From the NCBI RefSeq assembly GCF_003334305.1, contig NZ_QOWS01000013.1: a stretch of 64,000 nucleotides of DNA. The stretch is one strand, 5' to 3'. This stretch comes from Escherichia coli. GTDB taxonomy: Bacteria > Pseudomonadota > Gammaproteobacteria > Enterobacterales > Enterobacteriaceae. The translations under genes were made by a program, and so were the position numbers. Positions 38,833-43,972 of this stretch are shown here, in pieces (the first letter of the stretch is position 1; each line of letters opens with the position of its first letter). Below the pieces are notes generated by a model that saw only the letters and a list, made by a program, of their open reading frames with translations, was not told the DNA's origin and searched no databases.

Positions 38833-39234
38833 ATGGCGAAAGAATTTGGTCGCCCGCAGCGCGTAGCGCAGGAAATGCAAAAAGAGATCGCTCTCATCCT
38901 GCAGCGTGAAATTAAAGATCCTCGCCTGGGCATGATGACCACCGTTTCCGGTGTCGAAATGTCTCGCGACCTGGCGTATGCCAAAGTATATGTGACGTTC
39001 CTCAACGACAAAGATGAAGACGCGGTTAAAGCGGGCATCAAAGCGTTGCAAGAAGCTTCTGGTTTCATCCGCAGCCTGCTGGGGAAAGCGATGCGCCTGC
39101 GTATCGTGCCGGAACTGACCTTCTTCTACGACAACTCTCTGGTTGAAGGGATGCGCATGTCAAACCTGGTGACCAGCGTGGTCAAACATGACGAAGAACG
39201 TCGTGTTAACCCGGACGACAGCAAGGAGGACTAA
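38833..39234 (+). CDS. rbfA: Ribosome-binding factor A RbfA, 133 aa
   Basis: Start at the internal Met [20 protein letters not shown]; ORF-track start at 38815 rejected. Confidence 0.94.
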
Positions 39235-40178
39235 TGAGTCGTCCTCGTCGTCGCGGTCGCGACATTAACGGCGTTTTGTTGCTGGATAAATCGCAGGGTA
39301 TGTCCAGCAATGATGCGCTGCAAAAAGTGAAACGGATTTATAACGCCAACCGTGCCGGGCATACCGGTGCGCTGGACCCGCTGGCAACTGGCATGTTGCC
39401 AATTTGCCTCGGGGAAGCGACGAAGTTTTCCCAGTATCTGCTGGACTCCGACAAACGCTATCGGGTCATTGCGCGTCTTGGACAGCGTACCGATACTTCT
39501 GATGCCGACGGACAAATCGTTGAAGAACGTCCGGTAACCTTTAGCGCAGAGCAACTGGCGGCGGCGCTGGATACTTTCCGTGGCGATATCGAACAGATCC
39601 CTTCGATGTATTCAGCACTGAAATATCAGGGTAAAAAACTGTACGAATATGCGCGTCAGGGCATTGAAGTACCGCGTGAAGCGCGCCCGATTACCGTTTA
39701 TGAATTGCTGTTTATTCGCCACGAAGGCAATGAGCTGGAGCTGGAAATTCACTGCTCAAAAGGCACTTATATCCGCACCATCATTGATGACCTGGGTGAA
39801 AAACTCGGTTGTGGCGCGCATGTTATTTACCTGCGTCGTCTGGCGGTAAGTAAATATCCGGTTGAACGGATGGTGACCTTGGAACATCTGCGTGAACTGG
39901 TCGAACAAGCCGAACAGCAGGATATTCCGGCTGCGGAGTTACTTGATCCATTACTGATGCCAATGGACAGTCCAGCTTCGGACTACCCGGTGGTGAATCT
40001 TCCGTTAACGTCTTCTGTTTACTTCAAAAATGGTAACCCAGTTCGTACATCCGGTGCGCCGCTGGAAGGACTGGTTCGCGTTACAGAAGGTGAGAACGGC
40101 AAATTTATCGGTATGGGCGAAATTGACGATGAAGGCCGCGTTGCGCCTCGTCGCCTGGTGGTTGAATACCCGGCGTAA
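39234..40178 (+). CDS. truB: tRNA pseudouridine-55 synthase TruB, 314 aa
   Basis: Catalytic motif [14 protein letters not shown] in the translation. Confidence 0.96.
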
Positions 40179-40230
40179 TGTTAACCGTCTTGCGATAACA
40201 GGTCGCTACGAGTAGAATACTGCCGCTTAA

Positions 40231-40596
<366 letters not shown>

Positions 40597-40611
40597 TTCT
40601 TGCGAGTTTCA

Positions 40612-40640
40612 GAAAAGGGGGCCTGAGTGGCCCCTTTTTT
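40612..40640 (+). terminator. rpsO rho-independent terminator
   Basis: Hairpin AAAAGGGGGCCTGAGTGGCCCC followed by T6. Confidence 0.75.
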
Positions 40641-40650
40641 CAAGCTGACG

Positions 40651-40824
40651 GCAGCAATTCACTGGAAACTAATGTATTGTTGCTATGAATGATCTTCCGT
40701 TGCAGAGGTTCGCGCGGCTAATGAGAGGCTTTACCCACATAGAGCTGGGTTAGGGTTGTCATTAGTCGCGAGGATGCGCAGAAGATCGGGTATTAACACC
40801 AGTGCCGTAAGGTACTGTCTAAGA
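40651..40824 (-). ncRNA. sraG: Possible SraG (PsrO) sRNA antisense in the rpsO-pnp spacer
   Basis: Placed from remembered K-12 position only; I cannot confirm the ends from sequence. Confidence 0.3.
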
Positions 40825-40842
40825 AAGAGAAAGGATATTACA

Positions 40843-42978
40843 TTGCTTAATCCGATCGTTCGTAAATTCCAGTACGGCCAACACACCGTGACTCTGGAAA
40901 CCGGCATGATGGCTCGTCAGGCTACTGCCGCTGTTATGGTTAGCATGGATGACACCGCGGTATTTGTTACCGTTGTTGGCCAGAAAAAAGCCAAACCAGG
41001 TCAGGACTTCTTCCCACTGACCGTTAACTATCAGGAGCGTACTTACGCTGCTGGTCGTATCCCGGGTAGCTTCTTCCGTCGTGAAGGCCGCCCAAGCGAA
41101 GGCGAAACCCTGATCGCGCGTCTGATTGACCGCCCGATTCGCCCGCTGTTCCCGGAAGGCTTCGTCAACGAAGTTCAGGTTATCGCCACCGTGGTTTCTG
41201 TTAACCCGCAAGTTAACCCGGATATCGTCGCGATGATTGGTGCTTCCGCAGCACTGTCTCTGTCTGGTATTCCGTTCAATGGTCCGATTGGTGCTGCTCG
41301 CGTAGGTTACATCAATGACCAGTACGTACTGAACCCGACTCAGGACGAGCTGAAAGAGAGCAAACTGGATCTGGTTGTTGCCGGTACTGAAGCCGCTGTT
41401 CTGATGGTTGAATCTGAAGCTGAACTGCTGAGCGAAGACCAGATGCTGGGCGCAGTAGTGTTCGGTCATGAACAACAGCAGGTTGTTATTCAGAACATCA
41501 ATGAACTGGTGAAAGAAGCCGGTAAACCACGTTGGGACTGGCAGCCGGAGCCGGTAAACGAAGCGCTGAACGCGCGCGTTGCTGCACTGGCTGAAGCTCG
41601 CCTGAGCGATGCTTACCGCATCACCGACAAACAAGAGCGTTATGCGCAGGTTGATGTCATCAAATCTGAAACCATCGCGACGCTGCTTGCTGAAGACGAA
41701 ACCCTGGACGAAAACGAACTGGGTGAAATTCTGCACGCTATCGAGAAAAACGTTGTTCGTAGCCGCGTACTGGCAGGCGAACCGCGTATCGACGGTCGTG
41801 AAAAAGATATGATCCGTGGTCTGGATGTGCGTACTGGCGTGCTGCCGCGTACTCACGGTTCTGCGCTGTTCACCCGCGGTGAAACGCAGGCACTGGTTAC
41901 TGCAACGCTGGGTACCGCTCGTGACGCGCAGGTTCTTGATGAACTGATGGGCGAACGTACCGATACCTTCCTGTTCCACTACAACTTCCCTCCGTACTCC
42001 GTAGGCGAAACCGGCATGGTCGGTTCTCCGAAGCGTCGTGAAATTGGTCACGGTCGTCTGGCGAAGCGCGGCGTGCTGGCAGTCATGCCGGATATGGACA
42101 AATTCCCGTACACCGTACGTGTAGTGTCTGAAATCACCGAATCCAACGGTTCTTCTTCTATGGCTTCCGTGTGCGGCGCGTCTCTGGCGCTGATGGACGC
42201 AGGTGTGCCAATCAAAGCTGCCGTTGCGGGTATCGCAATGGGTCTGGTGAAAGAAGGCGACAACTACGTTGTACTGTCTGACATTTTGGGCGACGAAGAT
42301 CACCTGGGCGATATGGACTTCAAAGTTGCAGGTTCCCGCGACGGTATCTCTGCACTGCAGATGGATATCAAAATTGAAGGTATCACCAAAGAGATCATGC
42401 AGGTTGCGCTGAACCAGGCTAAAGGTGCGCGTCTGCATATCCTGGGCGTAATGGAACAGGCGATCAACGCGCCGCGTGGCGATATCTCTGAGTTCGCACC
42501 GCGTATCCATACCATCAAGATCAACCCGGATAAGATCAAAGACGTTATCGGTAAAGGCGGCTCTGTTATCCGTGCCCTGACCGAAGAAACTGGCACTACC
42601 ATCGAAATCGAAGATGACGGTACTGTGAAGATCGCAGCGACCGACGGCGAGAAAGCGAAACATGCTATTCGTCGTATCGAAGAGATCACTGCAGAAATCG
42701 AAGTGGGCCGCGTCTACACTGGTAAAGTGACCCGTATCGTTGACTTTGGCGCATTTGTTGCCATCGGCGGCGGTAAAGAAGGTCTGGTCCACATCTCTCA
42801 AATCGCTGACAAACGCGTTGAGAAAGTGACCGATTACCTGCAGATGGGTCAGGAAGTACCGGTGAAAGTTCTGGAAGTTGATCGCCAGGGCCGTATCCGT
42901 CTGAGCATTAAAGAAGCGACTGAGCAGTCTCAACCTGCTGCAGCACCGGAAGCTCCGGCTGCTGAACAGGGCGAGTAA
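40843..42978 (+). CDS. pnp: Polynucleotide phosphorylase PNPase, 711 aa, UUG start
   Basis: Translation (M)[20 protein letters not shown] from TTG at 40843; two RNase PH domains, KH and S1; ORF-track start at 40756 is an upstream extension. Confidence 0.95.
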
Positions 42979-43087
42979 GGTTGCCATTTGCCCTCCGCTG
43001 CGGCGGGGGGCTTTTAACCGGGCAGGACGCCTTGTTGAGCCGCCGGGAACAGGACGTTCATTCAACCGTGGTCTTCGGGAGTGGGAA

Positions 43088-43972
43088 ATGAAGCCTTTTT
43101 TGCGCTGGTGTTTCGTTGCGACAGCACTTACGCTTGCAGGATGCAGTAATACTTCCTGGCGTAAAAGTGAAGTCCTCGCGGTACCATTGCAACCGACTTT
43201 ACAGCAGGAAGTGATTCTGGCACGTATGGAACAAATCCTTGCCAGTCGGGCTTTAACCGATGACGAACGCGCACAGCTTTTATATGAGCGCGGAGTGTTG
43301 TATGATAGTCTCGGTCTGAGGGCATTAGCGCGTAACGATTTTTCGCAAGCGCTGGCAATCCGACCGGATATGCCTGAAGTATTCAATTACTTAGGCATAT
43401 ATTTAACGCAGGCAGGCAATTTTGATGCTGCCTATGAAGCGTTTGATTCTGTACTTGAGCTTGATCCAACTTACAACTACGCGCACTTGAATCGCGGGAT
43501 CGCATTATATTACGGCGGTCGTGACAAGTTAGCGCAAGATGATCTGCTGGCGTTTTATCAAGACGATCCCAATGATCCTTTCCGTAGTCTGTGGCTTTAT
43601 CTCGCCGAGCAGAAGCTCGATGAGAAGCAGGCTAAAGAAGTGTTGAAACAGCACTTCGAAAAATCGGATAAGGAACAGTGGGGATGGAACATTGTCGAGT
43701 TCTACCTGGGCAACATTAGCGAACAAACGTTAATGGAAAGGCTCAAGGCGGACGCAACGGATAACACCTCGCTCGCTGAGCATCTCAGTGAAACCAACTT
43801 CTATTTAGGTAAGTACTACCTAAGTCTGGGGGATTTGGACAGCGCCACGGCACTGTTCAAACTGGCGGTTGCCAACAACGTTCATAACTTTGTTGAGCAC
43901 CGATACGCATTGTTGGAATTATCGCTCCTGGGCCAGGACCAAGATGACCTGGCAGAATCGGACCAGCAATAG
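43088..43972 (+). CDS. nlpI: TPR-repeat outer-membrane lipoprotein NlpI, 294 aa
   Basis: Lipobox LTLAGCSN and TPR repeats in the translation. Confidence 0.96.

Follow-up and report, generated by a model that had tools for sequence, protein, structure and literature searches.

Translation of pnp, the gene for polynucleotide phosphorylase (PNPase), almost certainly starts at the UUG codon at positions 40843–40845 of the window (the whole stretch of 64,000 nucleotides of Escherichia coli DNA that was analysed) and gives a protein of 711 aa, the in-frame ATG at 40774 and TTG at 40756 being non-starts. The finding is an ordinary one, as published work and current RefSeq already, and correctly, have E. 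coli pnp starting at UUG, and beyond correct annotation it matters little. The first description of this start reportedly came in the 1980s, along with the gene sequence; Portier and Regnier 1984 and Regnier et al. 1987 are said to be the original pnp sequencing papers, and the second of these is also said to be the one with the N-terminal protein sequencing.

The gene order in the window is truB (39234–40178), rpsO, pnp and nlpI (43088–43972), as given by the list of open reading frames and by the RefSeq annotation of an identical locus, in which the pnp CDS at 3044–5179 corresponds to 40843–42978 of the window (2136 nt, 711 codons plus the stop). A query of 901 nt (40300–41200) found matches in all 5,426 complete E. 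coli genomes searched, with at least 99% identity in 5,396 of them and up to 100%. The product is identified as PNPase by two NCBIfam equivalog models aligned over nearly their entire lengths: TIGR03591 scores 1092.5 bits (cut-off 525) over profile positions 1–688 of 689, and NF008805 scores 1060.7 bits (cut-off 471) over positions 3–682 of 683. An open frame of 855 aa on the minus strand (40819–43386) runs antisense to the whole of pnp and carries no RefSeq annotation; the strong bias of the pnp coding strand most likely makes it a shadow ORF. The coordinates of the features discussed here are collected in Table 1.

Table 1. Features of the rpsO–pnp region, in window coordinates
Feature	Position	Strand	Basis
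S15 (rpsO) autoregulatory leader	40269..40383	+	Rfam RF00114, 117.6 bits versus gathering score 39.5
rpsO CDS, ribosomal protein S15, 89 aa; upstream gene of the rpsO–pnp operon	40327..40596	+	ORF list, RefSeq
SraG, sRNA antisense to the pnp leader; 5′ end probable	40613..40828	-	Rfam RF00082 match and PMC5029454
GC-rich hairpin GGGGCC..GGCCCC; rpsO terminator on the plus strand, SraG terminator on the minus strand	40618..40634	.	terminator scan, Rfam SraG 3′ end, PMC5029454
Nearest upstream in-frame stop, TGA	40690..40692	+	codon walk
RNase III-cleaved hairpin of the pnp leader; core stem 40708–40775, loop 40738–40745	40697..40789	+	RNAfold, -41.6 kcal/mol
Upstream in-frame TTG, mechanical ORF start (740 aa), non-start	40756..40758	+	paired in the 3′ arm of the hairpin; no Shine–Dalgarno upstream
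Upstream in-frame ATG, presumed start of the obsolete 734-aa annotation, non-start	40774..40776	+	paired in the stem, within GAGGAUG
Shine–Dalgarno AAGGA, 7-nt spacer to the UUG	40831..40835	+	sequence; conserved in 81 sequences
TAATAT, probable -10 box of the SraG promoter, in the Shine–Dalgarno–UUG spacer	40835..40840	-	reverse complement
UUG initiation codon of pnp	40843..40845	+	sequence, RefSeq, orthologue conservation, published toeprint (PMC5029454)
pnp CDS, polynucleotide phosphorylase, 711 aa	40843..42978	+	RefSeq, NCBIfam TIGR03591

The codon at 40843 is TTG, and the codons that follow it are CTT AAT CCG ATC GTT CGT AAA TTC CAG TAC. The distance from the AAGGA to this codon falls within the 5–9 nt that separate a Shine–Dalgarno sequence (SD) from an AUG, GUG or UUG start. 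By this arrangement the SD would position the 30S subunit on the UUG, and initiator tRNA would decode the codon as fMet to begin the 711-aa PNPase. Published experiments place the start at the same codon: the toeprint formed on pnp by 30S subunits and tRNA-fMet lies at +15 nt from the UUG, and a chromosomal mutant in which the TTG was changed to TGA lost pnp translation and had a destabilised mRNA (PMC5029454). The mutant alone does not discriminate between starts, because a protein initiated further upstream would be stopped as well; the toeprint, unlike the mutant, does exclude an upstream start. There is no mention of pnp in the main text of the Ribo-RET preprint or of the Salmonella N-terminal proteoform paper.

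Comparison of orthologues, with one genome per species and 80 Enterobacterales loci ranging from E. albertii to Xenorhabdus, Yersinia, Serratia, Dickeya and Pantoea, shows that the homologous codon is TTG in every one of these other species (81/81 with the window), preceded by AAGGA or AAGGG. The A at -12 and the G at -10 within the SD are each 99% conserved in the 81 sequences. Downstream of the TTG the mean column entropy is 0.115, 0.058 and 0.908 bits for the first, second and third codon positions, and upstream of the SD it rises to almost 2 bits, near the maximum, so that the three-base periodicity of conservation that marks the onset of coding begins precisely at the TTG. In 48 of the 80 species there is no in-frame ATG, GTG or TTG between this codon and the nearest upstream stop; 61 lack an upstream in-frame ATG, and 8 have the stop one codon away. 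Within E. coli, 5,339 of the 5,426 genomes share an identical 63-mer centred on the TTG, and the same 63-mer with ATG or GTG in its place found no match at 99% identity or above in any of the 5,426. One of the 87 variant genomes was inspected, that of strain MEW (L090), and it keeps the TTG; where it aligns to 40825–40835, its leader lacks 1 nt and its SD reads AAGGG in place of AAGGA. Two further features of the bases next to the start codon may be recorded: the base at -3 is A in 81/81 sequences, and the codon preceding the TTG is ATT in >90% of species, ACA taking this place (window 40840–40842) in E. coli, E. albertii and two Rahnella species.

The protein sequences give the same N-terminus. 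A search with the first 156 residues recovered N-termini from many Gamma- and Betaproteobacteria, in which 6–8 residues precede the FQYG motif (MNPIVK.., MFEKPVVK.., MFNKVTK..). The few longer N-termini are evident gene-caller extensions; one database protein (P0004) reproduces the frame of the E. coli leader, an extension resembling the obsolete annotation, and three others (P0047, P0059, P0069) appear over-extended, reading through a likely GTG start. The NCBIfam PNPase models align from residues 37–39 of the mechanical 740-aa ORF, which are residues 8–10 of the 711-aa protein. The sequence-only reading had proposed the UUG at 40843 as the start, and on this point the RefSeq start, the published toeprint, the invariant TTG, the orthologue N-termini and the model starts all bear it out. 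It was also right that the longer N-terminus is not conserved: the 29 residues upstream are unmatched by any PNPase model and the extension is absent from the orthologues. Alignment with orthologues, the check that it had suggested, gives no support to the longer form and leaves the start at the TTG standing.

Why a UUG should be so strictly kept is a separate question. On a neighbour-joining tree built from the first 600 coding bases of the 81 sequences, the bases of the TTG show no parsimony changes, and the 74 four-fold degenerate sites average 19.7 changes each, a single one of them having none. The TTG has stayed unchanged while neutral sites changed ~20 times, which points to purifying selection within Enterobacterales. 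Each of the 12 invariant internal leucine columns in the first 200 codons uses 3–6 synonymous codons, with CTG dominant and TTG in at most 8 of 81 sequences; as far as codon usage in the alignment goes, the pattern at the start looks unlike that of an internal leucine codon. Such strict conservation argues for selection acting on the codon itself, without saying why.

One reading, which we hold tentatively and with less than even confidence, is that selection may retain a near-cognate start on pnp because it contributes to the control of PNPase dosage. Expression of pnp is controlled by RNase III, whose cut is followed by decay that depends on PNPase and RNase E, by CsrA at the SD, by competition between PNPase and S1 and by SraG (PMC5029454), and the UUG could set a moderate rate of initiation that lets CsrA, the S1/PNPase competition, SraG and RNase E act. 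The suggestion of the sequence-only reading, that a weak start codon fits the autoregulation of PNPase, is plausible and a reasonable idea. ‘Weak’ is, however, an unsafe label for UUG, because an mRNA with UUG competes well with one with AUG in vitro and is favoured at 20–30 °C (PMC5499595). As UUG outcompeted AUG at these temperatures in that work, the codon could instead keep initiation efficient in the cold and so favour PNPase synthesis during cold adaptation. A search of the literature found no pnp mutant with UUG changed to AUG and no test of the role of the start codon; the strict conservation of a non-AUG codon is what gives codon-swap work on PNPase homeostasis and cold induction its worth.

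It is rather unlikely, though well worth weighing, that the UUG has been kept by history and weak selection only, AUG or GUG being equally good and the codon having no regulatory role. Codon identity is indeed not universal, since other orders use GTG, as Pasteurellales, Aeromonadales and Alteromonadales do, or ATG at the same position. Of eight further loci outside the core Enterobacterales (L082–L089), those of Plesiomonas, Haemophilus, Aeromonas, Shewanella and Pseudoalteromonas start with GTG, those of Vibrio and Janthinobacterium with ATG and that of Buchnera with TTG; non-AUG starts of pnp are common in Gammaproteobacteria but not universal. Moreover, UUG gives 10–100% of the output of AUG in reporters (bioRxiv 10.1101/063800), and it is the initiation codon of ~3% of E. 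coli genes. Against this explanation stands the contrast between the unchanged start codon in 81 lineages and the neutral sites on the same tree.

Constraint from the opposite strand or from RNA structure, rather than selection for a near-cognate start, would be another way of holding the TTG constant, and it has a probable overlap to point to. The antisense RNA SraG is recognised between rpsO and pnp by Rfam RF00082, with 164.3 bits (gathering score 50) over 40613–40784 on the minus strand. The transcript is 216 nt long, its true start having been mapped 42 nt upstream of the 5′ end formerly assigned (PMC5029454), numbers which would put the SraG 5′ end near 40826–40828. The minus-strand TAATAT (40840–40835), only 3 nt from the TTG, is probably the -10 box of SraG, as its position fits this start, and the pnp initiation region and the SraG promoter would then overlap. 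The T at -4, which is the key A of the -10 box on the other strand, is nevertheless kept in only 43% of species, whereas the TTG is kept in 100%. Furthermore, the TTG falls in the spacer of the SraG promoter, and the sequence of a sigma-70 promoter spacer matters little. The SraG promoter was therefore rejected as the main cause of TTG invariance, its -10 box being unconserved in many species that keep the TTG.

The RNA side of the same explanation concerns a predicted helix, GAUCGG:CCGAUC, in which 40784–40789 of the leader pair with 40852–40857 in codons 4–5 (plus strand), so that the SD and the UUG are enclosed and the initiation region is bracketed. Among 69 unique orthologous leaders, 75% have it in the minimum free energy fold, versus 44% when the leader is shuffled; as the sequences are related, this is suggestive only of a helix between leader and coding sequence that might occlude the initiation region. 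The TTG itself lies outside the predicted helix. Taking both strands together, constraint of this kind is distinctly improbable as the reason for the invariant codon. The third base of the proline codon at position 4 is 96% conserved.

The leader upstream of the start is dominated by the hairpin that RNase III cleaves. Folding of the 241-nt leader gives a z-score of -3.9, and the consensus fold for 42 species has 25 pairs, 6 apical ones supported by compensatory changes as in a conserved hairpin, and a lower stem, including GUCGCGAGGAUG, that is essentially invariant among the 42. RNase III cuts the leader at +39 and +77 from promoter P2 (PMC5029454). Combined with the geometry of the fold, these positions would place the P2 transcription start roughly near 40685 and the downstream cut near 40761; a scan of 40200–41000 for the sigma-70 consensus found no promoter. 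With the downstream cut near 40761, the TTG at 40756 would be lost from the processed mRNA, and it is probably removed in this way. In the folded leader both this TTG and the ATG at 40774 are paired in the 3′ arm of the very hairpin whose cleavage by RNase III triggers PNPase autoregulation.

Both upstream codons bear on what the sequence-only reading said of the leader. It had placed an ATG at the mechanical ORF start at 40756, where the codon is in fact TTG, and it had seen no in-frame ATG nearby, overlooking the one at 40774–40776, 69 nt (23 codons) upstream of the start. Its extension of 29 residues is correct as a length counted from the TTG at 40756 but not as one that begins with ATG, since the ATG at 40774 adds 23.

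This ATG would, if used, yield a protein of 734 aa, and we take it to be the start in the older K-12 annotation. It is in frame and open in the window, the motif GAGGATG that contains it is present in 73/82 sequences, and the PDB entries 3CDI and 3CDJ (chain A of each) have KRKDIT before LLNPIV, six residues derived from the 5′ UTR (window 40825–40842). These residues are a legacy of the obsolete 734-aa annotation, and the later entries 3GCM, 3H1C and 7OGK have their first residue at the TTG codon. The conserved motif stands 59 to 81 nt from the TTG, with the distances spread over the three mod-3 classes as 27, 24 and 22, and only 6 of the 73 sequences (E. coli and 5 others) have the ATG in frame and open; in strain MEW the 1-nt deletion falls between the two codons. 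Because its distance to the TTG varies without any preference for frame, the upstream ATG is conserved as an RNA element and not as a codon. In the folded leader the ATG is paired in the RNase III hairpin, and the GAGG abuts it directly, leaving no SD spacing; no PNPase model covers the extension and no orthologue has it, and the toeprint is at the UUG (PMC5029454). Frame-independence, pairing in the hairpin, the N-termini of models and orthologues and the toeprint effectively refute a start at this ATG, for which we see scarcely any chance. As the ATG is in frame and open in E. coli and the 5 others, a trace of a longer isoform may nonetheless arise from unprocessed transcripts.

A start further downstream, at the in-frame GTG of codon 15 or the ATGs of codons 22/23, with the TTG untranslated or internal, is just as remote: such codons do exist there, but no SD precedes them, the toeprint maps to the UUG (PMC5029454), and codons 2–21 are conserved at the amino-acid level across Proteobacteria, with third-position wobble from codon 2, and are therefore translated.

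What the leader does conserve around the upstream ATG is the motif GCGAGGAUGCGC (40768–40779, plus strand), an invariant sequence in the 3′ arm of the hairpin. Its AGGAUG resembles a CsrA GGA site and is the probable second CsrA site of the processed leader, which is described as having two, one of them over the SD (PMC5029454, citing Park 2015). In the folding model the motif would become single-stranded only once RNase III and PNPase have processed the leader, and this matches the published requirement for repression by CsrA. The conserved ATG is an RNA feature, part of the RNase III hairpin and probably of a CsrA site, and no coding extension; it has misled the older annotation and two PDB constructs.

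The closest known system is pnp of E. coli K-12 itself (b3164, UniProt P05055), which agrees with the window in its UUG start, its SD, the RNase III hairpin and SraG. The stretches of leader and early coding sequence that were compared are identical or nearly so; nothing of substance differs, and the locus is the same. As a case of a mis-annotated N-terminal extension pnp resembles others of its kind, which comparative analysis or profiling of initiation sites has put right, having once been annotated from an upstream in-frame ATG (734 aa), and it is now correct in RefSeq. A more instructive comparison is with infC, which encodes IF3, starts with AUU and is translationally autoregulated, and so also combines a conserved non-AUG start with an autoregulated gene of the expression machinery (PMC5499595). 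The mechanism is known for infC, where IF3 discriminates against its own AUU, whereas no factor is known to sense the UUG of pnp. Unlike that of infC, the documented control of pnp acts through the leader hairpin, the SD (by CsrA), the binding of S1 and the decay of the mRNA (PMC5029454).
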